From Candidatus Omnitrophota bacterium (GTDB lineage: Bacteria > Omnitrophota > Gorgyraeia > Zapsychrales > Fredricksoniimonadaceae), in NCBI GenBank assembly GCA_028865345.1, contig JAGWKL010000001.1:63296-127295 (forward strand): DNA of 64,000 bases, written 5' to 3'. Made by a program: the position numbers and the translations under genes. A model generated the notes under the pieces. The model was not told where the DNA came from and did not search any database. It saw nothing but the letters and a program-made list of their open reading frames with translations. This document shows positions 35,605 to 64,000 of the stretch, in pieces (positions within the stretch are counted from its first letter, which is position 1; every line of letters starts with the position of its first letter).

Positions 35605-35752
35605 GTAAATATTTTAACAGATTCCAAAAATGAAAATAGCATTATTCAAATTTTTTTGCCTTGAAACCGGTTTAAAATCCGTTGTAAAGTCCCCGTGAAG
35701 CGGCTTGCGCGCCCGGCCATCTTCAGTTATACTTTGTATACAGATAAAATCC
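35605..35752. promoter_or_regulatory. AT-rich divergent promoter region between pilM (minus) and the Flp-like Cys-rich protein gene (plus)
   Basis: 148-nt AT-rich spacer between divergent start codons. It marks the boundary between the all-minus core block and the accessory locus. Confidence 0.4.
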
Positions 35753-36859
35753 ATGCGTAAAAACGGCCAATCCATCATCGAGTATATCTTGATTGCAATC
35801 CTGGTGATTTTAGCGATTGCATTTATGGGCACCTATGTGCTGCGTTCGGTCAACGCCCATTTCAAAATGTGGGACGAGGGCGTCCGGGATTCCGCCGAAG
35901 AGATCATCAACCAGGCCCCGATCGCCGATGTGCCTAATATTTCATTGAACTGCTCGTGCTCGCAGACCGTGGGGACCTGCGGAAGCAGCACGCCCGGCTC
36001 GCAATGCGCCGCCAATGAGAAAATAATAACCTGGAACTGCAATCCCCAGGGATGCAACGGCGCGCAGGGAAACAGCACCTGCGAACTTGACCCCAGCTGC
36101 TGTAATACGCCTGCACCCCAGGGCTGCGGCAACCATCCTCTTCCTTTCGTTCCTGCGACCAAAGGATATATAGGGACCCCGATGCCATGCCCGACAGGGC
36201 TTTCAGGCACATGTTACCAGGGGCTTGGATCCGGCAGTCCCTGCTATTACGGCCAGCAAACCTACGGCTATGCCTGTGGTTCCAATACCAGCCAGGTCTG
36301 TGTCCCGGACAATTCCTGCCCGAACCCCACATGCACGGGATTTATTCTCTTTTCGAATTCTACCACCTATTGCCCGGGCGCCACCAGCGGCCTGCTTCAA
36401 GACACGCCGAACTACTATGTGGGCAACAATTCTTCGGCTTGTTCAGGCTCTGGAAATTGCGAATTGTATTGTAATGCGCCCTATTCCGTCACCCCGGCGA
36501 ATCCGACCAATCCGACGGAAGCTTCCTGCTCCATGGAATTCAACGTAGCGGCCTCCTGTTGCGGTCCTGATGGTTATGACCCTTCATGCCAGTACAGCAC
36601 CAATAATACAAGCAACCCCACCTGTGCCAATGGCGGATGCTCATGTTGGGCATCCGGCAGCCATCAGATCACTAACAACGAAAGTTTTTCAGTCTGCCTT
36701 GACCCAACCACCAAGCTCTCTTCCGTCTATGCCCTGCCGGTCGGGTCTACGGCGACCAATACCTACAAGAGCCCTGCGTTATCCCCCACCGACGGCGGAT
36801 GCGGAGACCCGGGCCTGCCTTCCCAGACATGCAGCATCTCTGTTAATTTCGGATCGTGA
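35753..36859 (+). CDS. Cysteine-rich (~31 Cys) Ser/Thr/Asn/Gly-rich protein with a Flp-type class III (prepilin) signal peptide
   Basis: N-terminus MRKNGQSIIEYILIAILVILAIAF carries a G/xxxxEY Flp-pilin processing motif with Glu at +5. About ten N-x-S/T sequons. No match to an ordinary pilin length. Confidence 0.6.
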   Translation: MRKNGQSIIEYILIAILVILAIAFMGTYVLRSVNAHFKMWDEGVRDSAEEIINQAPIADVPNISLNCSCSQTVGTCGSSTPGSQCAANEKIITWNCNPQGCNGAQGNSTCELDPSCCNTPAPQGCGNHPLPFVPATKGYIGTPMPCPTGLSGTCYQGLGSGSPCYYGQQTYGYACGSNTSQVCVPDNSCPNPTCTGFILFSNSTTYCPGATSGLLQDTPNYYVGNNSSACSGSGNCELYCNAPYSVTPANPTNPTEASCSMEFNVAASCCGPDGYDPSCQYSTNNTSNPTCANGGCSCWASGSHQITNNESFSVCLDPTTKLSSVYALPVGSTATNTYKSPALSPTDGGCGDPGLPSQTCSISVNFGS

Positions 36860-37920
36860 TGGAGCCCATGAAACACCCCCTTGTCGCCGGCGTTGACGAT
36901 CTTTCATTAGACCAAAGGAAGTTTGATCCATCCCCCCTGGACATCGAACGCATCTGCCGCTTCTTTGGTTTGGGAAAACTCAGGCACTTCGAAAAAGAAA
37001 AAAACATCGTGGTTTCCCATTCCAATTTTTTCGCCTTTGTCCGCACAAACCAGGGGGGCTACGCGCTGAAATTCTACCCGCCGCAGGCGGCCCGGGGCAT
37101 CAGCGTTGAATATGCCCTCAACCGCCTCCTGACCGGGCATCGTTTTGCCACACCTTTAATGCACGCGGGAAAAGACGGCCGTGCCTGGGTTTGCGGCTGC
37201 GGCCGTCTGGCAGCCTGTTATTCTTATATCGACGCAGCGCCGGCATGGCAAAAGATCGGGCAAAAAAAGACCATCCGCGCCATCAATGCCTCGATGTTGT
37301 TGCTGAAGCGTATTTTATCCGCCGCCGGAGAGTCCCTTCCGGTGCAAAAACAGAAAACCTTCGGCGCACAGACCCATGACCTCCTGCGCCTTTCCCGCGA
37401 CCTGCGGCCTTATGACCAACAAGAAACGATCGAGGCCTGCCTCCTGGCGGCCTGCCGCGCCTATCAGCGGCATGAAGGGCTGTTTGTCCGCCGGAGGCTC
37501 CATAACAACGCGGGTTTGACCAACTTTCTCGTCGACAGAAAAACCGTTTACACCCTTGACCTGGGCCACGTGCGGGAAGATTACGCCATAAGCGATCTGG
37601 CCGGCATGGTCATTTCCTGCGTTTTCTTTGACACGCCGCCCCAAACAATCCGGGCCATCATTGAAGACTATTTTGCCCAACATCAAATGACACAGGACAG
37701 CAGCGCGGCCCTTGCCGTACTTGTCCAGACCGGGCTTATCAAAGAATATCTGAAAAACATCCAACGGGAAAAATCACTTGGATCTTCCCTGTATCCGCCC
37801 GGACTTCTGGAAGCCTACAGGTCTCTGCTCGCCGAACGCAAGAAATCCATCAGGACTGTTTTAAAGAAAGGGCTTCTGAAAGGGACGGGGCGCCGGGGAC
37901 GGGAAACAGCGCTGATTTGA
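36859..37920 (+). CDS. Protein kinase-like fold phosphotransferase (APH/ChoK/HSK-II-like)
   Basis: Catalytic-loop-like HNNAGLTNFLVD and a DLG (DFG-like) motif. Start ATG overlaps the upstream stop (TGATG), indicating coupling. Confidence 0.5.
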   Translation: MEPMKHPLVAGVDDLSLDQRKFDPSPLDIERICRFFGLGKLRHFEKEKNIVVSHSNFFAFVRTNQGGYALKFYPPQAARGISVEYALNRLLTGHRFATPLMHAGKDGRAWVCGCGRLAACYSYIDAAPAWQKIGQKKTIRAINASMLLLKRILSAAGESLPVQKQKTFGAQTHDLLRLSRDLRPYDQQETIEACLLAACRAYQRHEGLFVRRRLHNNAGLTNFLVDRKTVYTLDLGHVREDYAISDLAGMVISCVFFDTPPQTIRAIIEDYFAQHQMTQDSSAALAVLVQTGLIKEYLKNIQREKSLGSSLYPPGLLEAYRSLLAERKKSIRTVLKKGLLKGTGRRGRETALI

Positions 37921-38959
37921 GTGTCGAGCGGATCATGGTTGTCATGGGGACTTCCGATAAATAGCTGGGGCACCGGCTGCAGGGAACATCGCTGCCGGGC
38001 TTGATCAATCCCAGCACAGTCATTTTCATGTCCAGGTATCGCTTGCTTTTCATGACCGCTTCAAGCCCGTCCTGGAACACATTGCCCGTATCCCCGAAAT
38101 AATTGGCGCAGCATCCGGTCATTTTCCCGTCCCAGTTGATTTGCGGGGCGGTCCACAACTGATAGCAGGACAAATACAGCGACAGGCCGTATTGATCGCT
38201 GTATTCCTGCCTTGTGGCGCTGTTGGACCCGCTCAGGTAACGGATCAATGCCTTGTTTTTGACCGGCGCATACTCCGTCCTTGAATTGAGCTTGATCTTG
38301 AAGACCATCTTCAGTTCCCGCGCCAAGGTCATGGCCTTCAGCACCACATGTTCATTATGCGCAAACGGGATGAATTGCCACTCCAGTTCAGGCAGGGCGC
38401 TGTCATATTTTTCTTTATAAAAGTTAAGGGTTTTGATGTTGTTGATGACCTGCGTGAAACTCCCCCCCACCCGGTATTTCGCATAGCTCTCTTCATCCCC
38501 TCCGTCGATGGCGACGTTGAGGTAACGGAAACGGTATTTGACCAGGTCTTCGCACATCGCAGGGCTTACCCTGTTGAAATTCACGCCCGAACGGGCGGTC
38601 AGGGTGACCCCTTGCTCGCAGGCGTCCTTGATGATGGCCCCCAGCTCCGGGTTAAGGAATATCTCGCCTGAATGGGACAATTCTATGGTTTTGACCGACG
38701 GGTTGGCGCGGATGAAAGCCGCAAAGTCCTTGGCGCGCAAATATCCCCATCCCAGCACCCCGTTCCTTTTTTCCGGACGGGTGTGGGGGTCGCACACAGG
38801 ACAGGCCAATTGGCAGGCGCTGCAGGCGCTCAATCGGACAAAGGTAGGCGGAACATAGCTTAACAGGTCGGCTTTCGTGATCATCTGATTAAAGTGTAAA
38901 CCATAACGGCGCCCCTGTAAAGCGGCTTTGCTAAAGACGCTTGAAATGGTAAAAACCAT
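37850..38959 (-). CDS. Radical SAM protein (start approximate)
   Basis: CQLACPVC (CX3CX2C) motif plus a C-terminal Cys cluster. The track ORF N-terminal extension overlaps the upstream gene and was discarded. Confidence 0.7.
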   Translation of the reverse strand: MVFTISSVFSKAALQGRRYGLHFNQMITKADLLSYVPPTFVRLSACSACQLACPVCDPHTRPEKRNGVLGWGYLRAKDFAAFIRANPSVKTIELSHSGEIFLNPELGAIIKDACEQGVTLTARSGVNFNRVSPAMCEDLVKYRFRYLNVAIDGGDEESYAKYRVGGSFTQVINNIKTLNFYKEKYDSALPELEWQFIPFAHNEHVVLKAMTLARELKMVFKIKLNSRTEYAPVKNKALIRYLSGSNSATRQEYSDQYGLSLYLSCYQLWTAPQINWDGKMTGCCANYFGDTGNVFQDGLEAVMKSKRYLDMKMTVLGLIKPGSDVPCSRCPSYLSEVPMTTMIRSTLKSALFPVPGAPSLSEALSLKQS

Positions 38960-40403
38960 TTCCCCCGTTTGAAACTTTATAATCCTGAAAGAACCCTTTG
39001 AGTTGAATTCTGGGAGGCAGCTGGATCCCGGAAGGCGGTTGAATTCCGTCAGGCATTTGGTTTTTGTAGACCAAAAATACCGCGTGCACCCGCGGTTTAA
39101 GGAGACCGTTTTGGGCCAGGAACTCCGCCGGGTTTGTCCCCTCCCGTATATTAATGACCCTGCGCGTATCCCCCCTATAATAGTAGCTGAAATCCTGAGG
39201 ATCGGCATAGGACACAATGAGATCGTTGGGACCTGCCGCCCGCATTAATTCTTTTGCGGTCGAGCGCCAGTCCTGCTGGGGAAAGCGGGCGATTCCGGTG
39301 AAATACAAATAAATATTAAAAATGGCGATCATAAGCATCGCCGCCAGCATCACGCTGCGCAAGGGGCCGGAGACGGCGCCCAACCGGCTGCTGATCATCA
39401 GGATAAGCGGCACCTGCAAAAATCCGACATACCGCGCCTCAAGATAAACGTGGACACAGGTATAATCGAACAGAAAATAGGCCAGAAGCGCCACGGCAGC
39501 CCATAAAAAGACGGCCCGGTCATCGGCTCTCCGGGGACTATCAACCAGGAAAAACACCAGCAAAAAGACATATAAAAAACAATTGATCTCCCAGAGCCCC
39601 AGGTGGAAAGAATATTGGGCCCAATTTTCATGCGTCCAAATTTCCAGGCCGCTGCCTATGATGAAGAAAAAAGAGCTTAAAGCAAAATGCAGGTAATCAA
39701 AGGCGGCCGTGGGGCGGATCAGCCCCCAGGTTTCTTTGGGGGAACACAAAAAAAGGACCACCCACGGAATACAAAAACCAAGTATGATGAGCTGCCCGGT
39801 GAACCATGGCCTGCGCCTGGCCCCGGTCAATATAAAAATGATGTTTTGCGCCGCCAGAAACAAAAACCCCGAATACATCGTATAGCAGCATAATATGGAT
39901 GTTGCGATATACCATCGATGCGGGGCCTTCCCCTGATTCCTGAGGAAACGGAAAAAGAACAAAAACGATAACGCCTCCAGCAGCCAGAAGGACGCGTACA
40001 TCTTGGCGTACTGGGCATAATGGACGGCAAACGGCGAGAAAGCCAGCAGCGCCGCGGCGATAAGCCCGGCATTTTTATTAAAAAGTTCCTTGCCCAGTTT
40101 ATAAATGACAATGATGGTCAGGCCGGAAAAAAGCGCCGAAGGAAACCTCAGCGCCCATTCGCTCGTGCCGAAAAGGCGCGTCCATAAATGGAGAAACGCA
40201 TAATAAAGCGGCGGAAACGAGGAAGCTTTCAGCAGGACTACGGTCTCCCAAAAAGAATGATTGATCCTCACCGCGGTGGTCAGCTCATCATCGCCCAGGC
40301 TGGGCGCCCCCAGATGATAAAACCGGAGCGCAAGCCCCGCGGTCAGCAGGGCCGCCATGACCCAAAAATCCCCCGGCATCTTCAAAAACCGCCGTTGCAG
40401 CAT
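38931..40403 (-). CDS. GT-C fold glycosyltransferase, family 39/83-like (PMT_2 / ArnT-like) membrane protein
   Basis: More than 10 TM helices. A first-loop DE motif (GDDELTT) and an FPPLYY block are typical of PMT/ArnT-type lipid-sugar-dependent transferases. Confidence 0.8.
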   Translation of the reverse strand: MLQRRFLKMPGDFWVMAALLTAGLALRFYHLGAPSLGDDELTTAVRINHSFWETVVLLKASSFPPLYYAFLHLWTRLFGTSEWALRFPSALFSGLTIIVIYKLGKELFNKNAGLIAAALLAFSPFAVHYAQYAKMYASFWLLEALSFLFFFRFLRNQGKAPHRWYIATSILCCYTMYSGFLFLAAQNIIFILTGARRRPWFTGQLIILGFCIPWVVLFLCSPKETWGLIRPTAAFDYLHFALSSFFFIIGSGLEIWTHENWAQYSFHLGLWEINCFLYVFLLVFFLVDSPRRADDRAVFLWAAVALLAYFLFDYTCVHVYLEARYVGFLQVPLILMISSRLGAVSGPLRSVMLAAMLMIAIFNIYLYFTGIARFPQQDWRSTAKELMRAAGPNDLIVSYADPQDFSYYYRGDTRRVINIREGTNPAEFLAQNGLLKPRVHAVFLVYKNQMPDGIQPPSGIQLPPRIQLKGFFQDYKVSNGGNGFYHFKRL

Positions 40404-40412
40404 GTCGCCTTT

Positions 40413-41135
40413 CTAATGAAACCTCAACTCCGATACAAAACGGCCCGGATCGATCTTCTTCATAAGCCCCTTCTCCTGTCTCATGGACAACAGAAGAAAG
40501 ACATCCCTGGCCAGCCGGTTGAGCCTTCCCATAAAATGGTAGTGCGTTTTCCCGAATTTTCTTTTCCGGCAGGCGATGTCGACCTCGCAAAGATTGATCT
40601 TTTTTTCCCTGGCCAGCAAAGGCAAAAACCGGAACGCCTCGCCCCTGTCTTTGATATCATTGACGATCTTGGACCGGTAGGCCCTGAAGGAGGAATTGAT
40701 ATCATAATACCCCAACCCGAACAACAGGCAGATCAGCCTCTTGGTGATCTTGCGCCTTTCTTTCTTGCCATTCACCACGTCGTAACCCATGTTGATTTTT
40801 TCCACCAGTTTCAAAATGTCCTGCGGGTCATGTTGGAGATCGCCGTCCATGGTGATGATCACCTCCGAACGGACAAAATTCATCCCGACCAAAAGCCCCA
40901 TGGTCTGGCCGAAATTCTTTTTAAGTTTGACCACATTGACGGACTTGTCCCGCTGGTGGATGGCGCATAACTCCCCATAAGAGTTGTCTTTGCTGCCGTC
41001 TTCCACGAAGATGATTTCATATCCCCCCCGCAGCGATTTCAGGCTGTCTTTCAGGCGCTCATAAAGGATGCCTATGTTCTGCTCTTCGTTGTTGACAGGA
41101 ATGACGATGGACAAATCCATGGCTTTTTGCGTCAC
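40413..41135 (-). CDS. GT2 polyprenyl-phosphate sugar synthase-like glycosyltransferase (DPM1/ArnC/GtrB-like)
   Basis: LSIVIPVNNEE...FVEDGSKD...MDGDLQHDP, the DXD-type GT-A motifs of Dpm1-like enzymes. Confidence 0.8.
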   Translation of the reverse strand: MTQKAMDLSIVIPVNNEEQNIGILYERLKDSLKSLRGGYEIIFVEDGSKDNSYGELCAIHQRDKSVNVVKLKKNFGQTMGLLVGMNFVRSEVIITMDGDLQHDPQDILKLVEKINMGYDVVNGKKERRKITKRLICLLFGLGYYDINSSFRAYRSKIVNDIKDRGEAFRFLPLLAREKKINLCEVDIACRKRKFGKTHYHFMGRLNRLARDVFLLLSMRQEKGLMKKIDPGRFVSELRFH

Positions 41136-42001
41136 AACTGCCCGTAGCTCGACAGCGAGATGCCGTATTGCTTGAACACTCCCCGGGCCCCCAAACAGCG
41201 CAATACCTCCATCTCCCGTTGTCTCGCGGCATTAATATAATATTTCTGCCGGTTAAGCACAGGGTCTTGCCATTCCTCATCGATATAGCCGGGATGGCAC
41301 ATCAATTCCGTGGTCCCCTTTTTTAAACCGGACAATACCCTTATGCAGCCTTCCAGCGTCATACGTCCTGTGACGGACGCCCCGTAAAAATAGTCCGGGG
41401 ACTTGACATGATAGGTCTCCAGCATCCGCCGGTTGATCATGGAGCAACAGGACAACAACAGCGCCGTGTAGGATTGCTTTTTAAATACCCTCCCCAGGCC
41501 GGCTCTTTGCCCCAGATAAGGAATTTCATTGATGCTGCGTATTTTTAAAATGCCGTATTCCCCGGCGATTGTCAAGAGGACTTTAAACAAAGGACTGAGG
41601 ATGTGGACATGCTTTTCACTGTCTAAATGCGTGATCCGGACCCCCCGGGAGAGGGCCTTTTCAATTTGGGCCCTGCATTCAACGGCAAATTCCTCCAAAC
41701 ACCTTTTGCCCGTATAACACAGCGCGGCCAGACGGTTGACATTCCCGTGGAAAAATCCCCCCTCGCAAAGGCTGCCGACGCCTTCGACGGGAGAAACAGG
41801 CCTGCCCCGCAGCACATTGATGTGAAGACCGACCCCCAAACCCGGATTGTCCCTGATTGATCTGACGGCGTCCTCAAAACCGGGCATATTCACCATCAAT
41901 GACGCGCTGGTCAATACGCCGCTGTTAAACAACTCTATTATTCCCTTATTAATGCCGCGGCTGAGGCCGAAATCGTCGGCATTGATAATGAGCTTCTTCA
42001 T
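41132..42001 (-). CDS. YdjC/ChbG-family carbohydrate deacetylase
   Basis: N-terminus MKKLIINADDFG, a YdjC hallmark. Internal start chosen. Confidence 0.8.
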   Translation of the reverse strand: MKKLIINADDFGLSRGINKGIIELFNSGVLTSASLMVNMPGFEDAVRSIRDNPGLGVGLHINVLRGRPVSPVEGVGSLCEGGFFHGNVNRLAALCYTGKRCLEEFAVECRAQIEKALSRGVRITHLDSEKHVHILSPLFKVLLTIAGEYGILKIRSINEIPYLGQRAGLGRVFKKQSYTALLLSCCSMINRRMLETYHVKSPDYFYGASVTGRMTLEGCIRVLSGLKKGTTELMCHPGYIDEEWQDPVLNRQKYYINAARQREMEVLRCLGARGVFKQYGISLSSYGQL

Positions 42002-42723
42002 AAACGGCTTTTTACTTTTCGGCGGCCATAGGTTGTTATCAACATACGCCGCATGACGGCAGGGACCTGGATCTCGCTTTTGAAGGTCCGGTGCGGGATG
42101 CCCCGTGCAATGGCCAATGCACGCAAAAGTTTCTTGTCTTTCTTCAAGGCCGCGGGCACCTCCTGCGCCAATGCCAGCATGGCTTCTGATAAGAACGGGA
42201 AAATAAATTTGCACCCGTGAACCTCGGCCACGCGCAAATGAAGGGCCTTTTGCCGCCTGGCGTCCTGTAGGCGCTCCTTAAGCCTTTGCGGCCTTACTTG
42301 CAAAGCCTCATTACCAAACCACTGATCAGAACCCATGCCTGAAATCAACACGTTCCCCGCAGTCTTGGGATCGTATTTCTTGAGGGCCGCATACACGACC
42401 CCCAGGTCCAGGTCCGCCATAGGCTGCTCCGTCAAAGCGGCAAGCCCCCCAAAAGCGGACAAGAATTCCGCAGGTTTCACATGAAGGATGCAATGTTTGA
42501 TCCCTGCCTGCCGGGCGGACTCAGCGGCCCCGGCAACGGTGAGAGGGTTAAAATCGTCAAATTGCACCGTCACCGCCGTCACTTGGGCGCCGCAGCGCCG
42601 GGCCATCAACGCCATCAGCATGGAATCGAACCCGCCGCTGAACATGATCGCCCGGCGGGTGCCGGCCATCTTTCCCATGGCCGACTCCAGTGTCCGCTCC
42701 ACCAAAAAAGGAAGATCCCTCAT
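41998..42723 (-). CDS. PP-loop superfamily ATP pyrophosphatase (asparagine synthetase C-domain / QueC / LarE-like)
   Basis: A SGGFDS PP-loop close to the N-terminus. No C-terminal Cys cluster, so probably not QueC proper. Confidence 0.6.
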   Translation of the reverse strand: MRDLPFLVERTLESAMGKMAGTRRAIMFSGGFDSMLMALMARRCGAQVTAVTVQFDDFNPLTVAGAAESARQAGIKHCILHVKPAEFLSAFGGLAALTEQPMADLDLGVVYAALKKYDPKTAGNVLISGMGSDQWFGNEALQVRPQRLKERLQDARRQKALHLRVAEVHGCKFIFPFLSEAMLALAQEVPAALKKDKKLLRALAIARGIPHRTFKSEIQVPAVMRRMLITTYGRRKVKSRL

Positions 42724-43697
42724 GCCTTCACGGCCCTGTTGTATATTTCCATTTTCTCGCCGACCATCTTATTGCGGGCCGTCCAGCGGCAATTAATGCA
42801 CTCATGATAGTTTCTAAAGGGGGCTTCCCCCTTTAGGGCCGAATTACGCGTACGCGTATACAGTTCCGATTGCCAGATGTCTTTGAATGATGACTTAAAC
42901 ACATTGCCCATCGATGAGCGGTGCGTAAAAATACAAATATTCACATCGCCATTAAGGCGTATCGCGCTGAAAAACCATCCGGTATAACACGCAGGCCATT
43001 CTCCTTCCAACTCGGTTTTCTCCACCTGGTCGGGCAATATCATATGACGGTTATGGTCGCTGGGCTGAAATCCTTTGATCTGGACCTTGTCCGCTCCGAG
43101 CTTGCGGACCAGGGCCTGCGTCCTTGGCAAACTGGCTTCATTTAAACGGTTTAAAACGAAAACCACTTCAATGCAAAAATTCGGGTTGAATTGCGGCCTG
43201 AGCCTGGCCAGTTCCCTTATATTTCTTATGACCTTCATAAAAAGGTCTTTGCCCACCAAGGCGCGGTAACTTTCCCGGTCCGCTTCCCCCAGATTGATCA
43301 CAATGCGGTCTGCCCGCAAAATATCGCGGCAGCGTTCGATGGGGAACGTTGCGTTCGAATACACAGTGACCGAAAAGGACCGTTCAAGATGGCATAAAAG
43401 GTCATAAAAGCGGGGATGGAATATCGGGTCCCCCACGCCGGAAAGGTGGATCTTGTCAACCTGGAGATCGGCGCAGTCCTGCACCAATCTCTCGATCAAA
43501 TCATACGGGAGATGGTTCTTGCCCGAAGGGCGGATGGCGCTGCCCGGGCCGTAATACCAGCAATACTGGCATTCGAGATTGCACAGGTCCGTCAACTGTA
43601 ACTGGACGGTGGCGGGGCCGATCAGGGCGCAGCCGGATTCAATGCTTTTAAGGCGCAGGAACAATCTTCTCTGTCGCTCACGCAGGTCCAGGATCAT
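42720..43697 (-). CDS. Radical SAM protein
   Basis: CNLECQYCWYY (CX3CX2C followed by aromatics). ATGA overlaps on both sides. Confidence 0.8.
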   Translation of the reverse strand: MILDLRERQRRLFLRLKSIESGCALIGPATVQLQLTDLCNLECQYCWYYGPGSAIRPSGKNHLPYDLIERLVQDCADLQVDKIHLSGVGDPIFHPRFYDLLCHLERSFSVTVYSNATFPIERCRDILRADRIVINLGEADRESYRALVGKDLFMKVIRNIRELARLRPQFNPNFCIEVVFVLNRLNEASLPRTQALVRKLGADKVQIKGFQPSDHNRHMILPDQVEKTELEGEWPACYTGWFFSAIRLNGDVNICIFTHRSSMGNVFKSSFKDIWQSELYTRTRNSALKGEAPFRNYHECINCRWTARNKMVGEKMEIYNRAVKA

Positions 43698-55334: not shown

Positions 55335-56720
55335 TCAAACTCCTGCCATGGACAGGACACTGCTGTTCAATTGTTCCAATGTCCGGCTTTTCAATATCAA
55401 TTTGGTCAAATCCCCTCCCTGATAGCGCAGCAGCCGGTCATAATCTCTGATGACTTTCTGCTGCGGCCTGGATTTGAGAAAAGTCACCAACTGCTGCATC
55501 AGGGCAAGGCTGTCCTCCGCTTCCGTCATGTACCAAAAATCAAAGAAAGGTTCGCGCAAACACACCTGCAGGATATCGCGCATCAACGCCGGGCTTATCT
55601 CCATCTGGGAGGGAAGGAAATTCATAATGAACATAAAGGGGACAATATAATTAGCTGCCGCAGGGGATCTATGGCGCCTGTTGAACAGTATCTGCCAGCC
55701 GATATTCGGTTCAACACCCTCTATGGCCCCCACCCGAAGCACCACTTCGAGGTTACGGCGCAGGGCCGAAGGGGTTTCCCCCCGTATCCCCATCATAAAA
55801 GAAAGATGGATTTCCGTTTCTTTCCGGCGGTACTTCAGGAATTCCGCCAGTCTTTTGGGGGAGTTTTCCCCCTTGCGGATCCGCCTTAACAGGGACAAAT
55901 CCACATGCTCCACGCCGAAGAAAATCGTCCGGCATCCTGCCGCGGTCATCCGGCCATAAATATCGGGGTCGATATCGTCCAACCTGGTCTTGCAGCGCCA
56001 GGTCACGCCGGGGTTTTCCCGTTGCAGCCGCGCCAGGAAATCTTCGGTAAAGGGCCTGTCCGAAATAAAATTGGGTTCGCAGAATTCAAAATAAGTTTTT
56101 CCGCTCTTTTCGGCAAAACGCATCCACCGCAGGACCCTGTCCGGTGAATGTCTGGTTATCGCCGGGGAACCTTCAAAAGGCAGGCGGTTGTAACAAAAAG
56201 AACAGTTGGCCCAGCAGCCGAAGGTCAGGTATTCCCAAAAACGGTAATGCTCGTACCCGTATCGCTTGAGCGACGCCCCAAGACCTTCAAAGAAAGCGTC
56301 CTCGGTCAGCCGGGGATTCCCGATATGCCGGAGAATATATTCGTCGATATTCAACGGGCTGAAAACAATGTTGTCCCTTTGGATCAACGAGGTTTCATAC
56401 AAAGAAAAATAAGGAGAACAAATAATGATCTTTTTATCCTTTAACAAAGGCAGATAAAGGTAGAGAAAGATGAGGGACTCGATCTTGGGATAATTATTAT
56501 GGCAAGCCATGGAAACAAGGACGGTGTCTTCCTTGATGCCGGACAGCACATGCATCAACGATGAACGAAAATCAGGGTCCGGGGAACGTTCGATATCATA
56601 AAATCCGTAAGGGTGGCCCAATGCATCAAGGAGGCTCAGGGCCTTCATCAGCCCAACCGGCAAGAGTTCATGATGTTTGGGAATGATCTGAAGGATCGCA
56701 AGCGAACGGCCTTTCTTCAT
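55335..56720 (-). CDS. Radical SAM protein with large N-terminal domain (class B/B12-binding-like candidate)
   Basis: A ~200-aa N-terminal domain followed by GCWANCSFCYNRL (CX3CX2C). Confidence 0.65.
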   Translation of the reverse strand: MKKGRSLAILQIIPKHHELLPVGLMKALSLLDALGHPYGFYDIERSPDPDFRSSLMHVLSGIKEDTVLVSMACHNNYPKIESLIFLYLYLPLLKDKKIIICSPYFSLYETSLIQRDNIVFSPLNIDEYILRHIGNPRLTEDAFFEGLGASLKRYGYEHYRFWEYLTFGCWANCSFCYNRLPFEGSPAITRHSPDRVLRWMRFAEKSGKTYFEFCEPNFISDRPFTEDFLARLQRENPGVTWRCKTRLDDIDPDIYGRMTAAGCRTIFFGVEHVDLSLLRRIRKGENSPKRLAEFLKYRRKETEIHLSFMMGIRGETPSALRRNLEVVLRVGAIEGVEPNIGWQILFNRRHRSPAAANYIVPFMFIMNFLPSQMEISPALMRDILQVCLREPFFDFWYMTEAEDSLALMQQLVTFLKSRPQQKVIRDYDRLLRYQGGDLTKLILKSRTLEQLNSSVLSMAGV

Positions 56721-57595
56721 CGCGCCCTCCTGGTTTTTTCAAGTACAAGGTAACCGCTGTCAGACTCTCCTAAATCAACTTTTAAACCCAACGGGCGCGC
56801 CTGCTGAGCAAGCACGCGGCCGGGAGAAACCCCGCCGCCCATAAAATCATTCCCCGGGTCAAGATAACCGATGATCCGCCCCCCCGGACGTAACAGACCC
56901 GCCATTCCTGCCAGCTTTGCCCGATAGTACTCCAGAGGTTCCTGCCAAAAAATATCCGACAAATAAATCACATCCAATGATCTTTTTCTAAAATAATCCG
57001 GGCTGTCAAATATGTCCATTTGAGCAAACCTCAAAGATCCAAGCCGCGCGCGCACTCTGGCTACAAACGACGGGTCTTTTTTCCAAAACGGTCCGGATTC
57101 CGGGTTTAGAACCATTTCACCCGCAGTAATGAACGAATACTTTTCAGCCAGTCCGGCGGGGGGAAGGATCCTTTCCCCTGTGGCCTTATTGTACAAATAC
57201 ATCTGCTGCAAGTGCCGGAAATTCCTTTTGATCGCTGTGATTTGACCGTGATGCGCCCGGTGCAATTGCTCAAAAGAAGGCATCATATTGTTTTGTTTTA
57301 TAAAAAAGGCCTTGGCAGCGAGCACAAAAAGTTGGGCACAATTAAGATCCACCGCCCACAAAGTCCCTTTCCTGCACCCGGCGCCGAGCATCGTCAATGC
57401 CTGATCGCCGCCGCCGCAGCAGGCCAAAATGTTCGGGCAATCTCCGGCGGCGGTGATCAGCGCCGCAAGCCTGGGGAGAGGTTCGGTAGAATCGAAATAC
57501 CGGACAAAACCCCCGTAACGCTTTAACGTGCTGTTGATCCCCTGAGGCTTGATCACAGCGTTCCTTTTCATCATCAAAGACGGCCCCTCCTTCAA
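56717..57595 (-). CDS. DUF3419/BtaA-like SAM-binding protein (possible 3-amino-3-carboxypropyl or methyl transferase)
   Basis: ILACCGGGDQALTMLGAG...VDLNCAQLFVLAAK resembles the DUF3419 signature (I.SaGdN.L...aVDlNpaQ). Confidence 0.45.
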   Translation of the reverse strand: MKEGPSLMMKRNAVIKPQGINSTLKRYGGFVRYFDSTEPLPRLAALITAAGDCPNILACCGGGDQALTMLGAGCRKGTLWAVDLNCAQLFVLAAKAFFIKQNNMMPSFEQLHRAHHGQITAIKRNFRHLQQMYLYNKATGERILPPAGLAEKYSFITAGEMVLNPESGPFWKKDPSFVARVRARLGSLRFAQMDIFDSPDYFRKRSLDVIYLSDIFWQEPLEYYRAKLAGMAGLLRPGGRIIGYLDPGNDFMGGGVSPGRVLAQQARPLGLKVDLGESDSGYLVLEKTRRAR

Positions 57596-59583: not shown

Positions 59584-60483
59584 ATGGCCATGACCGCTTT
59601 GGGGGTGATCATCCTGTGTGTCGGTGTATTAACCACGTTTACCGATCTTAAGAACAAAAAAATATATAATCTCCACTTGGGCCTTGGCGCCCTCATGGGC
59701 CTGCTGGCCGTGGCCTACACAGCTCTCAAAGGCCAGGAACACGTGCTTTTTCATCTTGTCGACGGCGCGGTTGCTTTTGGCGTCGGGTTTCTCCTGCACC
59801 GCTCTTCACTTTGGAAAGGCGGCGACGCCAAACTCTTTGCGCTCTATGCGTTTCTGATGCCGCCGCCGGAATTCAAACTGATCATCTTTCCGCAAGTGAC
59901 GGATCTGTTCGCCTGTTCCTTCATTGCAGGCACCATCCTGCTCATACCTCTTCTTATTAAAAATATTATCATAAATCGCGGGACAATTGCAACCCAGGCC
60001 TTTTCCCCGGCCAAAAGGCGCGGCCTCGGGTCGGCCATGGGGACCTTGATTTTCTATTCCTGGGCGCTGTTTCCCATCTATTACCTGGCCCGGCTTACGA
60101 ACCCCGTGGTCATTCTGTTTATCCTTTATTGCTTCTTCAATTGGGGCTATTCCACCAGGGAAATCAAGAAAGATGAAGTGGCGGCGCACAGAAAAAGATT
60201 TTATCTTGAGCTGTTGATCGTATTTTTGGTCGGGTTTCTCAGCCGCCTTTGGCTGGCGCCGGATTCCCTTGATGGGCCCTCCCTTTTACGCTATGGTCTT
60301 ATGATCGTATTTTCCTGCACCGTGTCTGTCTGCATCCACACCGTCCTGGAGCATGTCAAAGAATACCGTGACCGGGTGCCGTTTGCGCCGTTGCTATTTC
60401 TGGGATGCCTGCTGAGTTATACGCCTTTTTTGACATATCTGACGCGCCTGTTGGTCCGGTGGAACATCTTTTTCTACCGCTGA
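59584..60483 (+). CDS. A24-family type IV prepilin peptidase (TadV/CpaA/FlaK-like, no N-methyltransferase domain evident)
   Basis: Polytopic membrane protein with a GGDAKLFA second catalytic Asp motif and an Asp in the first cytoplasmic loop (FTDLKN). Confidence 0.75.
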   Translation: MAMTALGVIILCVGVLTTFTDLKNKKIYNLHLGLGALMGLLAVAYTALKGQEHVLFHLVDGAVAFGVGFLLHRSSLWKGGDAKLFALYAFLMPPPEFKLIIFPQVTDLFACSFIAGTILLIPLLIKNIIINRGTIATQAFSPAKRRGLGSAMGTLIFYSWALFPIYYLARLTNPVVILFILYCFFNWGYSTREIKKDEVAAHRKRFYLELLIVFLVGFLSRLWLAPDSLDGPSLLRYGLMIVFSCTVSVCIHTVLEHVKEYRDRVPFAPLLFLGCLLSYTPFLTYLTRLLVRWNIFFYR

Positions 60484-60524: not shown

Positions 60525-61556
60525 ATGGACCGATTTTCATCCCTTCCCCTGCAGCGGCCTTCGGTGCCGTTGGAGATCATCGTCGAGATCACCGGCCGGT
60601 GCCGGCAGGTCTGCCCTTACTGCACCGGCCCGCGGATACCGGATGTGCCTTTCAAAGATATCAAAGCCGCCCTTGATGAGGCCGCGGGGCTTGGCGTCAG
60701 GGCCATCCGCATTACCGGCGGGGAACCTACCCTGCATCCTGATATCCGCCAAATCCTGACGTACACCAAGGCCAAAAAATTTGACATCATCCTGAACACA
60801 TCCGCCGACAATATCAGCGCGGCCCTGATGAAAACCATCATCGCTACCGTCGACGTTGCGCATGTCTCATTACAAGGCTACGATGAGAAAAACAATGCTT
60901 CCTACACCCGTTCCAAGGTCCCTTTCCTGGATAAAATCAAGAATATCTTTCTTTTAAAAGCTTATCTGCCGACCCTGTGGATCGCCACCGTCATAACGCC
61001 GGCCAAACCGTTAAAGCCCTTTATTCCCATTATTAAAAAGATCCACCCCGCCGCCTGGCTCCTGCAGCGCCCCATCAGTGAGTCCAATGAAGATTTGAAA
61101 AAAATGGACATTCCGTATTACCGTGCCCTTGCGCTTGAGATCATGAAACTCCGCAAAGAAAGGATCAACGCCTTTATTTCCAATCCGATTCCCCTGTGCG
61201 TCGCGGGGAACCTGGATATAGGTCAACAGGTGTTCCTGGGCGCCAAATTAGACGAGGGCCATTTACGCATCGTGCGCAGCGCCAAAGGGTATTTCAAGCC
61301 AAACTACTTTTTAGAGACCAATTTAGGCCGCACCCTTCAGGCTGCGTGGCAGCATCCTTTTTTAAACGACCTCAACCGCACCGACTATCTGCCGGACGAC
61401 TGCCAACGCTGCCCTCTGCTTGAAACCTGCCGGGGAGGCAGCCGTTCCATGGCCCTGCGCACCCACGGCACACCCCTGGCCGCGGATCCTCTCTTCGATG
61501 CCTCTACGGCCCGAAGAGCCCTGTCAAAGTACGATCCAAAACCTCAGCGCCTGTAA
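60525..61556 (+). CDS. Radical SAM protein with SPASM-like C-terminus
   Basis: GRCRQVCPYCTG and a C-terminal DDCQRCPLLETCRGG. Confidence 0.8.
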   Translation: MDRFSSLPLQRPSVPLEIIVEITGRCRQVCPYCTGPRIPDVPFKDIKAALDEAAGLGVRAIRITGGEPTLHPDIRQILTYTKAKKFDIILNTSADNISAALMKTIIATVDVAHVSLQGYDEKNNASYTRSKVPFLDKIKNIFLLKAYLPTLWIATVITPAKPLKPFIPIIKKIHPAAWLLQRPISESNEDLKKMDIPYYRALALEIMKLRKERINAFISNPIPLCVAGNLDIGQQVFLGAKLDEGHLRIVRSAKGYFKPNYFLETNLGRTLQAAWQHPFLNDLNRTDYLPDDCQRCPLLETCRGGSRSMALRTHGTPLAADPLFDASTARRALSKYDPKPQRL

Positions 61557-62721
61557 ACCACTCCTGCGGGACTGAAACATTGTTTTGAGACCGGCGTGCC
61601 GTTTCCCGGATCGCCGCAGCCAGCCCGTCCGCCGTTAAATGATCAATGGATAAAATCCTGGCGCCGATCGTCTCTTGAAGCATGAGCGCCCTTGCGGGCT
61701 GTTCACGGATCGACTGCCGTCCATACCCCTCAAAAGGAACAAGCACCGACTTCTTTTTGTATTTAAGCAGCATGACCGAGGTATGGTATGACGCCAGGGA
61801 AACGCAAACATCGCTGCTTTTGACCAGCCCTTCATAATCGCCCGCGGAGCGCAACAGCACCAGGTTTTTGATTTTCTTCTGACCCATCAGCGTGTTGAAG
61901 AAATACCATTCTTCAGAGGAAGTGGACGGCCCTGCCACCACGGTCACATAGTATTCTTTTCCCAGAAGATCACTGGCGCGGATGGCTTGGGCGATCACCT
62001 TAGGGTAGACCGCCCCGCCTCCCCGGAGTACGGCTACCCGGCAGGCCCCGGGAGCAGCAGGCGGTTTGGGACGATTCGTATCTTCGTCGTCCAGCGCCAC
62101 CTGGCTCTGGGGCAAAAGATATCCCGCAAATTTGGTTTTGGCAGCATGCCTGTCAAAGAATTCCAGATACCTTTGTTTCTCCTGCGGCCGCGAGAACAAG
62201 CCGGCCACGAACTCTTTTTCCTGCGGCGGCGAGAATATAAGGACCTGCTGATACAAGCGCAATATTTTCTGACGCCAGCCGTCATCCGTACCCGTCAATA
62301 AAGGGTAACCTGCCACGGCCCACAAGGGTGTGCCCTGGGCGGACATTTTAATCAGGGATGGGATCAGTTCATGGCGGCATTCGTGGCTTCCTATGGGGAA
62401 AAATTCCGTTATAAAAAAATCCGGGTTCTCACGGGCGACCAAATCCATGCAAGCCCGGGTCCGTTGTTCGGTCTGCTCCTGCATAGGGAAAGCCGGTTCT
62501 TTCAAGAAAGGCCTTTCCGTCGGAGCTTGAGGCAGCGGATAGACCTTGCCTATCCGGTTTATCATGGCCCTGGTCTGGACGGCCCCCGTCTGGATAAAGA
62601 AAACGTCCCCGTCAGGGGACCTTTTTTTGACGGCCTGCGCAACCGCGATGGCGCGGGAGGTGTGGCCGAAACATTCATAATGGGTAAAATAGAGACCCGT
62701 CTTGCGGGGGGAGGCTTTCAT
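61504..62721 (-). CDS. GT-B fold glycosyltransferase (GT1/GT28-like), paralog B
   Basis: It shares FTHYECFGHTSRAIA / FITEFFP / RGGGAVYPK blocks with 45597-46787. Confidence 0.6.
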   Translation of the reverse strand: MKASPRKTGLYFTHYECFGHTSRAIAVAQAVKKRSPDGDVFFIQTGAVQTRAMINRIGKVYPLPQAPTERPFLKEPAFPMQEQTEQRTRACMDLVARENPDFFITEFFPIGSHECRHELIPSLIKMSAQGTPLWAVAGYPLLTGTDDGWRQKILRLYQQVLIFSPPQEKEFVAGLFSRPQEKQRYLEFFDRHAAKTKFAGYLLPQSQVALDDEDTNRPKPPAAPGACRVAVLRGGGAVYPKVIAQAIRASDLLGKEYYVTVVAGPSTSSEEWYFFNTLMGQKKIKNLVLLRSAGDYEGLVKSSDVCVSLASYHTSVMLLKYKKKSVLVPFEGYGRQSIREQPARALMLQETIGARILSIDHLTADGLAAAIRETARRSQNNVSVPQEWFTGAEVLDRTLTGLFGP

Positions 62722-62787: not shown

Positions 62788-63576
62788 CTACTGACCGGGT
62801 ATGGGAGATCCAGCGCCGGGTGCATTGCATGCATCACGCATTTCGCTGTTGACAATGTCCGAACAACTGCCCGTCCCTTGGGCAACCCCAAACCAGGTAT
62901 AAAAATCTTTTGATTCCTGTTCAGGGGTCCGTACGTCTGCGAGGATACGGCATCCGGACAGCGCCCTATACCAGTTAAAATTCCAATTAGGCCCATAGGG
63001 CCCGACATAATCTTTGATATATTCTTCACAGGAGGAGGCTGAACCCTTTAAAGCCAAAACATATGCTATCTCCGCCACGGTATCACCTTCATCGTCTTTA
63101 GAAAAATCCGGGACATGCGTAAAAAATGCCTGCCTTGTGCCGGCACCGGGGGAATTGAGGACAGGGCATATCAGCGAAGCCAGCTCTTCCTGCGTCTTGA
63201 GCGGATATTGACTAATTTGACTGTAGAAGCACTCGGTGGGTTCCTTGCCTGTATTGCCTTGACAGGCAGTGTAAGCGCAAATCCATCGACGGATGCCTTT
63301 GGCCTTGCTTAAACAGCCTTCATCCCCCCCGCAGAGGGATAAGCCGCCCTTCGCCGCCTGAAACGCATTAAAATGCAATTGCTCCATGAGGGCCTGCCTG
63401 GGATCAACCGTCGCCGCAGGTATAGAATCGAGATCAATGGCGGGAGACATCGGGGGCTGGCTCTGGTTATCGGCGTTTTGTTGGGCCCCGGCAACACCTA
63501 CCCCGCCGGCGGCCAAAGACAGCAGCATAAAAAGGGCAAGGCCCCTTAACCTAATATGAAGTATGTGTCGTAACAT
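62788..63576 (-). CDS. Secreted cysteine-rich hypothetical protein
   Basis: N-terminal signal peptide MLRHILHIRLRGLALFMLLSLAAGGVGVAGAQQ and more than 12 Cys. Confidence 0.4.
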   Translation of the reverse strand: MLRHILHIRLRGLALFMLLSLAAGGVGVAGAQQNADNQSQPPMSPAIDLDSIPAATVDPRQALMEQLHFNAFQAAKGGLSLCGGDEGCLSKAKGIRRWICAYTACQGNTGKEPTECFYSQISQYPLKTQEELASLICPVLNSPGAGTRQAFFTHVPDFSKDDEGDTVAEIAYVLALKGSASSCEEYIKDYVGPYGPNWNFNWYRALSGCRILADVRTPEQESKDFYTWFGVAQGTGSCSDIVNSEMRDACNAPGAGSPIPGQ

Positions 63577-63820
63577 TGGAATGGTTGATGCAATTGCCCG
63601 ATGTACTCAGCGCATTCGTGTGGGTGGCCGTATTCTGCGCGGATGTGATATCCGTCATCGCCCCTGCCACGCCCAATGCCGCCACCGTAGACAAGCCGAC
63701 CTTTAAAATGGTTTCCTTGCTGACAAAGCCGTCCTCATCTTTCATCAATTCACCGAGAGACTTGGTCAGCGCCGCGGTCTTGTGAACGGCTTTACTTTTA
63801 TTTTTGGTTTTCTTGTTCAT
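63551..63820 (-). CDS. Small hypothetical protein (89 aa), Lys-rich N-terminus, Thr/His/Asn/Ser-rich C-terminus
   Basis: ORF only. It overlaps neighbours at both ends. Possible precursor-like peptide; see findings. Confidence 0.3.
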   Translation of the reverse strand: MNKKTKNKSKAVHKTAALTKSLGELMKDEDGFVSKETILKVGLSTVAALGVAGAMTDITSAQNTATHTNALSTSGNCINHSNVTTHTSY

Positions 63821-64000
63821 CGCCGACTCCTTGTGTCCAACGTTGGAAGACCTCTACATACTTTTTATCGCCCAGTAAATAAGAAAAAACCGTCCTGAAC
63901 TGGTGGGTCAACACATGCTGCAGGCGCGAATCCCCCTTAGGGACCACGTTTTTCTCCATTGCGTAATTCACCACAGGATCAACCCCCATCCACGGACTGT

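Follow-up and report, generated by a model that had tools for sequence, protein, structure and literature searches.

The stretch of DNA analysed here (the window, 64,000 nucleotides of contig JAGWKL010000001.1, assembly GCA_028865345.1) belongs to a Candidatus Omnitrophota metagenome-assembled genome, and it carries an island of radical S-adenosylmethionine (SAM) and sugar-modifying enzyme genes next to the gene for a large Cys-rich protein with a prepilin-type N-terminus. Core genes (ribosomal proteins, rpoBC, tuf, fusA, obg, proAB) fill positions 1-31500 and are followed by the pilQ-pilM operon (31600-35604), encoding the alignment complex and secretin of a type IVa pilus. The Cys-rich gene, which is divergent from pilM, is paired with a gene for an APH-fold protein, and a train of minus-strand genes running from 59387 down to 37850 converges on this pair. 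Beyond the train lie a plus-strand pair, an A24 prepilin peptidase gene and then a radical SAM gene (rSAM10), and after them minus-strand genes for a GT-B glycosyltransferase paralog and a secreted protein (Table 1). The Cys-rich protein is 100% identical to NCBI KGJ09_00585, and near-identical contigs are present in three NCBI assemblies (about 99.8% identity across 20.9 kb). As shown by the comparison with related genomes, the core of this island is linked to the Cys-rich gene far beyond chance.

To establish this we used three search starts that were independent of the Cys-rich protein: the PP-loop protein, the alignment of the APH-fold family and the rSAM3 family. The PP-loop scan of the genome collection gave four loci, its patterns detecting close relatives only. 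The related loci, cited here by their L numbers, share a collinear core in the order (PanE)-PaaK-rSAM6-rSAM5-DegT-rSAM4-GT28-DUF2334-rSAM3-rSAM2-PP-loop, followed by APH on the convergent strand, with identities of 54-80% in the closer relatives and 25-60% in the distant L024 and L025. Orthologs of the PP-loop protein (54-66%) occur in L013-L016, L018, L020-L022 and L026, those of the DUF2334 protein are 38-61% and those of GT28a 65-69% identical, and GT28a always lies on the strand opposite its neighbours. With a hidden Markov model of the Cys-rich family we found a member directly upstream of APH or within the cluster in L014, L018-L022, L025 and L026. Overall a full copy was linked to the cluster in nine of the eleven evaluable loci, and a truncated copy (94 aa and Cys-free, in L016) in one more. 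Linkage by chance would be expected in less than 1% of cases per locus, if each genome is assumed to have a single Cys-rich gene and a size of about 2.5 Mb. Because these ten copies turned up in loci that were found without a Cys-rich query, we consider the linkage real. The sequence-only reading of this DNA had proposed a gene set tied to the Cys-rich gene, and the comparison upholds it: the set recurs as a unit in related genomes, and its linkage to the Cys-rich gene is conserved there, the two being found together across the phylum.

The linkage was seen in three chromosomal settings: with pilMNOPQ (the window, L019, L020), beside a distant PilQ-like secretin (27-28% identical) without pilMNOP (L021, L022), and beside pilT without pilMNOPQ (L014). 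The Cys-rich and APH genes form an operon in eight loci, with overlaps or gaps of 1-80 nt, and they stay with the cluster where pilMNOPQ is not adjacent (L014, L021, L022, L025, L026). At least 17 long contigs, as same-sized entries, were common to the match lists of the rSAM3 and APH families. When the search was started from the Cys-rich protein, its gene was found divergent beside pilMNOPQ in seven distinct loci, with a variable other flank. This flank held a 75%-identical rSAM10 ortholog directly downstream of the Cys-rich gene, a GT28 gene, other radical SAM genes and an A24 peptidase gene in L006; PP-loop and DUF2334 orthologs in L013; and unrelated genes followed by an A24 and a radical SAM gene in L008. 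L010-L012 have the Cys-rich gene without the cluster, between pilMNOPQ and pilC/pilB. The pilQ-pilM block itself is syntenic in L006, L008, L010-L013, L019 and L020. The cluster is therefore nearly always found with the pilin gene and the pilin gene often without the cluster, which is in keeping with an accessory modification island that serves a structural protein.

Related islands carry other enzymes in place of some of those in the window, including a UDP-sugar dehydrogenase, two epimerases, a family 2 glycosyltransferase (GT2), a PMT_2 protein, an arylsulfotransferase, an adenosine phosphosulfate (APS) kinase and a sulfotransferase of the type using 3'-phospho-APS (PAPS), while a GT-C glycosyltransferase recurs in the window, L014 and L019. 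Such swapping of enzyme content is the pattern of variable surface decoration. The arylsulfotransferases are membrane-anchored and share the N-terminus AWAYIDPG (L019 11129-12697, L020 15367-16920, L022 19658-20992); the APS kinase lies at L020 14841-15365 and the PAPS-type sulfotransferase at L021 17602-18441. Judged from these families, they suggest that either the product or the conserved CYYGQ tyrosines are sulfated. A separate, recurring module that also contains a PP-loop protein follows the Cys-rich gene in L008 (11206-12308) and L020 (11023-12109, with the APH gene in between); it encodes a pterin-binding-like DUF4346 protein, a Dph6-like PP-loop amidase, a TonB-dependent receptor and a DUF6580 protein.

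The Cys-rich protein consists of a short basic leader, a long N-terminal helix and a variable domain rich in Cys (about 10%), Ser, Thr, Gly, Pro and Asn. In the AlphaFold2 model, whose overall predicted local distance difference test score (pLDDT) is 54, the helix spans residues 8-52, and only for this helix can a fold be assigned: a Foldseek comparison of the model with the PDB gave no match with E<4, and neither Pfam nor NCBIfam has a matching family. Its own family is large: searching 1.84 billion representatives with a profile gave 348 members at E<=1e-10 (representatives clustered at 50% identity; 63 to 1162 aa). In 16 aligned homologs the first 60 residues are strongly conserved, and the domain that follows, though variable elsewhere, keeps 26 invariant Cys. 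Since Cys positions are also conserved in homologs without a nearby cluster (L010-L012), the pattern is the one expected for disulfides. We also considered whether an odd Cys count marks one modified Cys, as 20 of the first 24 homologs have odd counts, and rejected this when the 103 members with intact N-termini gave 48 odd and 55 even counts (p=0.55).

The leader, MRKNG/QSIIEY (the slash marks the predicted cleavage site), matches the Flp/Fap motif G/XXXXEY, and GQSIIEY is found in 47 of the 103 members with intact N-termini, the remainder having close variants. However, the Pfam Flp model PF04964 gives no match to the window protein even at E<=10 and scores 23.3 bits, below its cutoff of 32.2, on the L025 member; the protein has 368 aa against the roughly 50-80 aa of Flp/Fap pilins; and Tad machinery (TadA/B/C, RcpA) is not associated, the neighbours being PilM/N/O/P/Q, with PilC/PilB-type genes in L010-L012. 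The features of a type IV pilin-like protein are all present, namely the basic leader, Glu at +5, the hydrophobic N-terminal helix, and an A24 peptidase and pilMNOPQ in the locus, and the Cys-rich gene is the sole prepilin-like ORF (open reading frame) in the loci examined. Given a Flp cleavage motif without a Pfam Flp match, and type IVa-like rather than Tad neighbours, we treat it as a putative pilin-like protein of the type IV pilus machinery with a Flp-type signal.

Three family members stand out. The L016 copy (12053-12337) is a 94-aa, Cys-free ORF with the conserved Flp-like N-terminus, upstream of APH and beside a complete core cluster; as only 70 nt separate it from APH there is no space for a Cys-rich domain, and the ORF represents a pilin that is naturally short or else a gene that has decayed. 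P0020 in L010 (4006-5625, 539 aa) ends in a Hint/intein-like domain (PF05203) and adjoins a Y1 transposase, a hint that the pilin-like protein may process itself in that lineage. In L026 (14176-18967) three APH-fold paralogs in tandem come after a 550-aa member that has a glycine-rich insert (PF21722).

The start of the APH-fold gene overlaps the stop of the Cys-rich gene (GTGA/TGATG), and the two are translationally coupled. The encoded protein matches PF01636 (cutoff 23.2 bits; Table 1), and its AlphaFold2 model (pLDDT 88) was matched by Foldseek with probability 1.0 to NahK (the GlcNAc 1-kinase), homoserine kinase II, AmiN, APH(9) and LicA, with YtaA, APH(3') and macrolide phosphotransferases as further neighbours. 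This likeness to small-molecule kinases, choline kinase among them, comes from structure comparison only, a search of PDB sequences with the family profile having given no match. In the catalytic loop H216-N217-N218 occupies the expected HxD position, with Asn in place of Asp; the family consensus is LHNNAxLTN, N218 is kept in at least 90% of 30 sequences, and the ATP/Mg residues K72, E85, N223 and D235 are retained. The family as a whole (83 clusters) has H-N-N instead of H-x-D, and every named cluster is from Omnitrophota. The protein may be a pseudokinase or use another mechanism.

Turning to the radical SAM enzymes, the count of ten genes within about 26 kb in the sequence-only reading proved right: each of the ten ORFs combines CX3CX2C with a PF04055 match above the gathering score (E 5e-7 to 3e-23), so the motif count is not due to chance. 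That reading had also ascribed C-terminal Cys clusters of SPASM or twitch type to at least five of them. The twitch pattern C-x17-18-C...C-x2-C is indeed found in five (rSAM1, 2, 3, 4 and 7), but PF13186 (SPASM) matches only rSAM1, rSAM2, rSAM3 and rSAM7, and a regular-expression scan found the full SPASM motif CX2CX5CX3C in none of the ten; rSAM5, 6, 8 and 9 have no auxiliary Cys cluster. Residues 236-303 of rSAM2 align in register with the twitch domain of BtrN, a sugar/cyclitol dehydrogenase, with the same Cys spacing and at a non-significant E of 0.22. Curated families of maturases for ribosomally synthesised peptides with post-translational modifications (RiPPs) were not reached (best scores 40-99 bits against cutoffs of 250-850). 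In the eight enzymes that are not of the B12 type CX3CX2C lies at residues 14-43, which leaves no space for an N-terminal peptide-recognition domain of about 90 aa, and the short intergenic gaps hold no small ORF for a RiPP recognition element protein, although no dedicated profile search for this element was made. The B12-binding domain PF02310, listed for checking in the sequence-only reading, matches no protein of the window. Like the APH-fold family, the rSAM3 family (about 100 clusters) has only Omnitrophota among its named clusters.

An A24 peptidase gene lies in or near the radical SAM clusters of the window, L006, L008 and L024, and in all four the peptidase, which lacks a methyltransferase domain, directly adjoins a radical SAM gene: rSAM10 or a 30-35%-identical homolog in the window, L008 and L024, and an unrelated one in L006. 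Judging by this adjacency, the A24 peptidase and rSAM10 may work as a pair in processing the N-terminus of the pilin. The peptidase sequence contains TDLKNK and GGDAKL, which we take to be the two catalytic Asp motifs of A24 peptidases.

The GT2, GT39-type GT-C, YdjC, DegT, PP-loop, PanE-like, halogenase, A24 and kinase-fold assignments made earlier from the letters alone were all borne out by Pfam matches. GT2, YdjC and GT-C are encoded adjacently (38931-42001), as in Arn-, Lgm- and Flm-type trios, with none reaching an equivalog cutoff: the best NCBIfam matches of GT2 are ArnC (119 bits) and PgfS (106 bits), with PpgS also among them, and the YdjC protein scores 170 bits with HpnK (cutoff 233) and 151 bits with ChbG, all below cutoff. 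The GT-C is the only periplasm-facing transferase in the island, and it has an ortholog in L019 (47%) and a PMT_2 counterpart in L014. DegT is LegC/PseC/WecE/ArnB-like (150-176 bits; ArnB 151 bits). The PP-loop enzyme is of the asparagine-synthase type, a class that also includes lasso and macrolactam cyclases. The PaaK-like ligase, likewise upheld, is called from PDB matches (phenylacetate-CoA ligase 4r1l, E 2e-16) and scores 68 bits with the DVU_1553-family ligase. The supposed CE4 deacetylase is covered by DUF2334 (48 bits), with the CE4 profile itself just below cutoff at 22.9 bits. One of the two proposed GT-B glycosyltransferases, GT28a, matches PF04101, and the other falls below the Pfam cutoff yet is a clear paralog (29% identity, E 5e-49). 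The DUF3419 call for the protein at 56717-57595, in contrast, was not sustained (13 bits against a cutoff of 28).

The halogenase has the signature features GxGxxG (as GAGFAG), WxWxIP (as WIWQIP) and Lys; it matches CmlS (3i3l, E 4e-14), and the Lys of its FTRKLG motif aligns with CmlS K70/K71, of which we take K71 to be the catalytic residue. The CmlS equivalog cutoff was missed (62 versus 900), and no flavin halogenase was found among the related loci sampled. Together with the arylsulfotransferases of the relatives, the PaaK-like ligase and CmlS-like halogenase are hints of an aromatic acyl part. We rejected the idea that GT2, YdjC and the B12-type radical SAM enzymes are hopanoid genes of HpnI/J/K type, as the HpnK (170 versus 233) and HpnJ (102 versus 578) scores fall short, GT2 resembles ArnC and not HpnI, and squalene or hopene genes are absent.

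Translational coupling, noted before, was confirmed by four ATGA overlaps and overlaps of 8-47 nt in the stretch covered by NCBI gene calls. The longest-ORF starts were too long for several genes; Table 1 gives revised coordinates for rSAM1, YdjC and rSAM5. The start of rSAM8 is probably at 54084, since the NCBI product has 321 aa. On two of the three near-identical contigs the call for the DUF2334 gene is 44832-45563, its longest ORF reaching 45593. Among the window ORFs the island has no exporter gene and no small precursor-peptide gene, and its intergenic gaps are very short. Antisense to GT28a runs a 362-aa ORF (45606-46694, minus strand), Arg/Gly-rich and without a family match, which has the look of a shadow ORF. 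The secreted 262-aa protein at the far end has a 35%-identical homolog at L022 19029-19613, adjoining a second APH paralog. A mobile-element or tRNA-integration origin of the island was rejected, there being no tRNA, integrase or GC shift at its borders.

Table 1 Genes of the pilus operon and of the adjoining island (positions in the window)
Feature	Position	Strand	Evidence
pilQ	31600-33015	-	Pfam Secretin 166 bits
pilP-like	33012-33356	-	in pilQ-pilP-like-pilO-pilN-pilM operon
pilO	33353-33970	-	Pfam PilO
pilN	33948-34556	-	Pfam PilN
pilM	34549-35604	-	PilM_2 124 bits; TIGR01175 155 bits, above cutoff 133
Cys-rich Flp-like prepilin-type protein, 368 aa, 31 Cys	35753-36859	+	leader MRKNG/QSIIEY
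APH-fold (small-molecule-kinase-like) protein	36856-37920	+	PF01636 38.4 bits
rSAM1, twitch-like C-terminal Cys cluster	37850-38884	-	PF04055, PF13186; orthologs L021 (70%), L022 (42%)
GT-C membrane glycosyltransferase, PMT_2/ArnT-like	38931-40403	-	PF13231 69 bits
GT2, polyprenyl-phosphate-sugar synthase type (ArnC/PgfS/PpgS-like)	40413-41135	-	PF00535 84 bits
YdjC-family carbohydrate deacetylase	41132-42001	-	PF04794 209 bits
PP-loop ATPase, asparagine-synthase-type synthetase domain, core gene	41998-42723	-	PF00733 59 bits; SGGFDS
rSAM2, twitch-type (C237, C255, C300, C303), core gene	42720-43697	-	PF04055, PF13186
rSAM3, twitch-type, best conserved core gene	43694-44839	-	PF04055, PF13186
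DUF2334/CE4-like deacetylase-fold protein, core gene	44832-45563	-	PF10096 48 bits
GT28a, GT-B glycosyltransferase, MurG-type C-terminal domain, core gene	45597-46787	+	PF04101 35.6 bits
rSAM4, twitch-like, core gene	46735-47751	-	PF04055; N_Twi_rSAM 52 bits; best PDB match SkfB E 3e-10
DegT/DnrJ/EryC1 sugar aminotransferase, core gene	47732-48850	-	PF01041 273 bits
rSAM5, without auxiliary Cys cluster, core gene, rSAM6 paralog	48838-49857	-	PF04055
rSAM6, without auxiliary Cys cluster, core gene	49854-50897	-	PF04055 83 bits
PaaK-like adenylating ligase (aryl/acyl acid activation), core gene	50851-52008	-	PDB 4r1l E 2e-16
rSAM7, twitch-like	52053-53129	-	PF04055, PF13186
rSAM8, class-B-like radical SAM, HpnJ/PhpK-like	53119-54312 (longest ORF)	-	PF04055; HpnJ 102 bits, cutoff 578
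PanE/ApbA-like 2-ketoacid reductase	54441-55322	-	PF08546 + PF02558 (77+47 bits); orthologs L014, L025
rSAM9, 165-aa N-terminal domain, HpnJ/AprD4-like core	55335-56720	-	PF04055 60 bits; L025 ortholog 42%
Class I SAM-methyltransferase-like protein	56717-57595	-	Methyltransf_25/11 E 5e-4; L025 ortholog 38%
Flavin-dependent halogenase, CmlS-like, 588 aa	57621-59387	-	PF04820 22.9 bits, cutoff 21
A24 prepilin peptidase, TadV/CpaA-like, without methyltransferase domain	59584-60483	+	PF01478 28.9 bits, cutoff 26.5
rSAM10, PqqE-like core, C-terminal CX2CX5C	60525-61556	+	PF04055
GT28b, GT28a paralog	61504-62721	-	29% identity, E 5e-49 to GT28a; PF04101 17.8 bits, below cutoff
Secreted 262-aa protein	62788-63576	-	no Pfam match

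The reading we favour, with a probability of roughly 45%, is that this hypervariable island builds an unusual donor, derived from an aminosugar, for attachment to the exported, Cys-rich and Omnitrophota-specific pilin-like surface protein. The analysis shows which families the genes belong to, that the core is conserved and that it is linked to the Cys-rich gene; all chemical steps and the acceptor are inferred, as follows. The A24 peptidase would cleave the leader of the Cys-rich prepilin after the Gly, leaving QSIIEY..., the long helix would anchor the protein in the membrane, and the Cys-rich domain would lie outside the cytoplasm, where the neighbouring PilMNOPQ machinery would handle it. 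The donor would be made by cytoplasmic enzymes: DegT would aminate a keto-sugar, the twitch-type radical SAM enzymes would oxidise, epimerise or rearrange it in the manner of BtrN, and the class-B-like ones would add methyl groups together with the methyltransferase. The YdjC and DUF2334 deacetylases would free an amine, N-acylation would use an acyl or aryl acid that the PaaK-like ligase and PanE-like reductase supply and activate, the PP-loop enzyme would amidate a carboxylate, and the halogenase would chlorinate an aromatic part. In the window genome GT2 would load a sugar on polyprenyl phosphate and the GT-C (PMT_2) would transfer it periplasmically to the exported protein, GT2, YdjC deacetylase and GT-C making up the classic route by which a polyprenyl-phosphate sugar reaches a periplasmic acceptor.

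We favour this decoration because prepilin peptidase genes lie in or near the clusters, because sugar enzymes (DegT, GT28, DUF2334) abound in the conserved core, and because several islands have the periplasm-facing GT-C or arylsulfotransferases. The lack of an exporter or small precursor gene, the Cys patterns of twitch rather than full SPASM type with no space for a peptide-recognition domain, the closeness of GT2 to polyprenyl-phosphate-sugar synthases, and the confident APH-fold model with small-molecule-kinase neighbours including NahK all argue in the same direction. So do the linkage in three chromosomal settings, its asymmetry, the shared operon of the Cys-rich and APH genes, and the sugar and sulfation enzymes that related islands swap in. 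An aminosugar pathway was also the alternative given in the sequence-only reading; it fits the conserved core better than crosslinking does, but in its original form, as a free natural product, it leaves the linkage to the pilin gene unexplained.

Several observations weigh against aminosugar decoration of the pilin. Not one of the island's enzymes, the ten radical SAM proteins and the accessory ones alike, scores above a curated NCBIfam cutoff, in line with the earlier statement that no named pathway matches, and every substrate is therefore a guess. The GT-C/GT2 pair lies outside the conserved core and was seen, in the flanks sampled, in three of about ten islands, which leaves most genomes without an explanation of the attachment step, and no O-oligosaccharyltransferase, flippase or initiating phosphoglycosyltransferase was found. 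The Velamenicoccus-like L024 has no Cys-rich gene within 21 kb of its cluster. Lacking the catalytic Asp, the APH-fold protein may not act as a kinase. The weak best matches of rSAM4, rSAM5 and rSAM6 are peptide maturases (SkfB, PapB at 83 bits, anSME), and ten radical SAM enzymes far exceed, to our knowledge, any known sugar pathway.

These last matches bear on the proposal of the sequence-only reading, that radical SAM enzymes of the SPASM type crosslink the Cys-rich polypeptide. Acting before export, they would form thioether or C-C bonds, possibly with epimerised or methylated residues as well, and glycosylation and halogenation would follow, giving a giant RiPP-like pilin. The strong and specific linkage to the Cys-rich gene would be accounted for, this gene being the only candidate for a protein substrate where the intergenic gaps hold no small ORFs; rSAM4, 5 and 6 resemble maturases, if weakly (SkfB E 3e-10), the PP-loop enzyme is of the same type as lasso and macrolactam cyclases, and anSME is a precedent for a radical SAM enzyme that modifies a full-length exported protein. 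Yet no protein has CX2CX5CX3C or reaches a maturase cutoff, the eight enzymes that are not B12-type have no N-terminal extension fit for peptide recognition, and prepilin-type signal anchors are inserted co-translationally, which limits access of cytoplasmic enzymes to the exported C-terminal domain. Moreover, L016 pairs the conserved cluster and APH with a Cys-free pilin version, and the disulfide-like Cys positions are kept in the cluster-free homologs. Crosslinking is thus disfavoured by Cys motifs, topology and the L016 variant, and we judge it quite unlikely. A wider version, in which the radical SAM, PP-loop and Asp-less APH-fold proteins would all act directly on the prepilin to make a crosslinked and decorated 'giant RiPP' subunit of a pilus or surface fibre, also seems improbable to us.

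If instead the island made a free aminoglycoside-like or aminosugar natural product, with the APH-fold protein as self-resistance or activation kinase and the pilin gene as a mere neighbour, the combination of DegT, twitch radical SAM, GT-B and deacetylase would mirror the butirosin/neomycin logic of BtrS-BtrN-BtrM-BtrD. The in-register alignment of rSAM2 with BtrN, the antibiotic kinases among the structural neighbours of the APH-fold protein (AmiN, APH(9), APH(3'), macrolide phosphotransferases) and the CmlS-like halogenase would fit too, as would the view that Omnitrophota are predators or parasites (PMC10066038). This leaves unexplained why a Cys-rich family gene is present in 10 of 11 loci and in three chromosomal settings, and why APH is co-transcribed with it; furthermore, the island has no exporter or regulator, the Pfam matches of the cluster proteins include no 2-deoxy-scyllo-inosose synthase or other cyclitol-forming enzyme, and the APH-fold protein is without its catalytic Asp. 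We see little chance that this account is right. Modification of the envelope (lipid A, the core of lipopolysaccharide (LPS) or another glycan), as by Arn, Bordetella LgmABC and Francisella FlmF2/NaxD/FlmK, is unlikely as well, although it would make sense of the adjacent GT2/YdjC/PMT_2 genes as a module of polyprenyl-phosphate-sugar synthase, deacetylase and GT-C, of the GT9 heptosyltransferase-family gene in L025, and of island contents that vary as in O-antigen loci. LPS/capsule glycosyltransferases are among the hypervariable Omnitrophota loci (10.64898/2026.06.07.730766), and the position of the island by the pilus locus would reflect a hot spot for genes of surface structures. A hot spot, however, cannot explain that the Cys-rich and APH genes travel with the cluster away from pilMNOPQ, the trio is outside the conserved core, and the A24 peptidase in the clusters points to a prepilin-type protein. 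Both the free-product and the envelope accounts therefore fail on the linkage.

Returning to decoration of the pilin by an aminosugar-derived donor, its closest known counterparts are the modification genes that adjoin the pilin gene in Pseudomonas aeruginosa (TfpO/PilO transfers O-antigen, and the GT-C TfpW arabinosylates group IV pilins), together with flagellin and pilin glycosylation islands. Accessory modification genes that vary between strains adjoin a structural pilin gene in both, both have a periplasmic GT-C with a polyprenyl-phosphate-sugar donor, and the structural gene also occurs island-free. In contrast, the Omnitrophota island spans 22-26 kb and combines 6-10 radical SAM enzymes with a PP-loop enzyme, a PaaK-like ligase and an APH-fold protein, pilin glycosylation not being known to involve any of these, its pilin is Cys-rich, 300-640 aa long and has a Flp-type signal, and the GT-C is not part of the core. 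The adjacent GT2, YdjC and PMT_2 genes and the ArnB-related DegT recall Arn (ArnC/ArnD/ArnT), LgmA/LgmC/LgmB, FlmF2/NaxD/FlmK, PpgS/Rv3779 of Mycobacterium and Pgf of Streptococcus mutans, Bordetella LgmC and Francisella NaxD being YdjC deacetylases; the Omnitrophota set, however, scores under the curated cutoffs, forms part of a far bigger radical SAM cluster and occurs in some islands only.

The 2-deoxystreptamine pathway (BtrS, BtrN, BtrM, BtrD) shares the DegT aminotransferase, twitch radical SAM, GT-B, deacetylases and APH fold, but the island has no inosose synthase, its GT28-like, YdjC and DUF2334 proteins belong to other families, the BtrN similarity is non-significant, and the tight linkage to a pilin-like gene is without counterpart there. 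SPASM maturases (anSME for sulfatases, QhpD for QhpC, and sactipeptide and ranthipeptide synthases) are alike in placing radical SAM enzymes with auxiliary Cys clusters beside a Cys-rich secreted protein; they differ in that the Omnitrophota scores are far below their cutoffs, that full SPASM motif, peptide-recognition domain and dedicated exporter are missing, that the only leader protease is the prepilin peptidase, and that the candidate substrate is a 368-aa membrane-anchored prepilin.

We found no description of this neighbourhood in the literature on Omnitrophota/Velamenicoccus or on pilin glycosylation islands, neither in the main paper on Omnitrophota genomics, where radical SAM is never mentioned, nor in a preprint of 2026 on complete genomes. 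That modification genes can lie next to the gene of a pilin is known; the content and scale of the Omnitrophota island are not, with its 6-10 radical SAM enzymes, PP-loop enzyme, PaaK-like ligase, Asp-less APH-fold protein and large Cys-rich Flp-type pilin. That it also represents a new kind of radical-SAM-matured surface protein we think rather doubtful.

The locus defines a large uncharacterised family of pilin-like proteins, an APH-fold family that is confined to Omnitrophota and has lost the catalytic Asp position to Asn, and at least six radical SAM families, uncharacterised and conserved as a set, that accompany both. Should the island serve to decorate the pilin, no known protein-modification island would be richer in enzymes, and it would supply new radical SAM sugar chemistry; if crosslinking were true, RiPP-type maturation would extend to a structural protein of the cell surface. 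The Omnitrophota have not been cultured, are mostly ultra-small and are thought to be predators or parasites, and their pili are prime candidates for host contact (PMC10066038). Were the enzymes to act directly on the prepilin, a new class of radical-SAM-matured surface protein would serve host contact by these ultra-small, possibly predatory bacteria. Either way the locus offers, through one protein, a concrete and testable handle on the surface biology of Omnitrophota.

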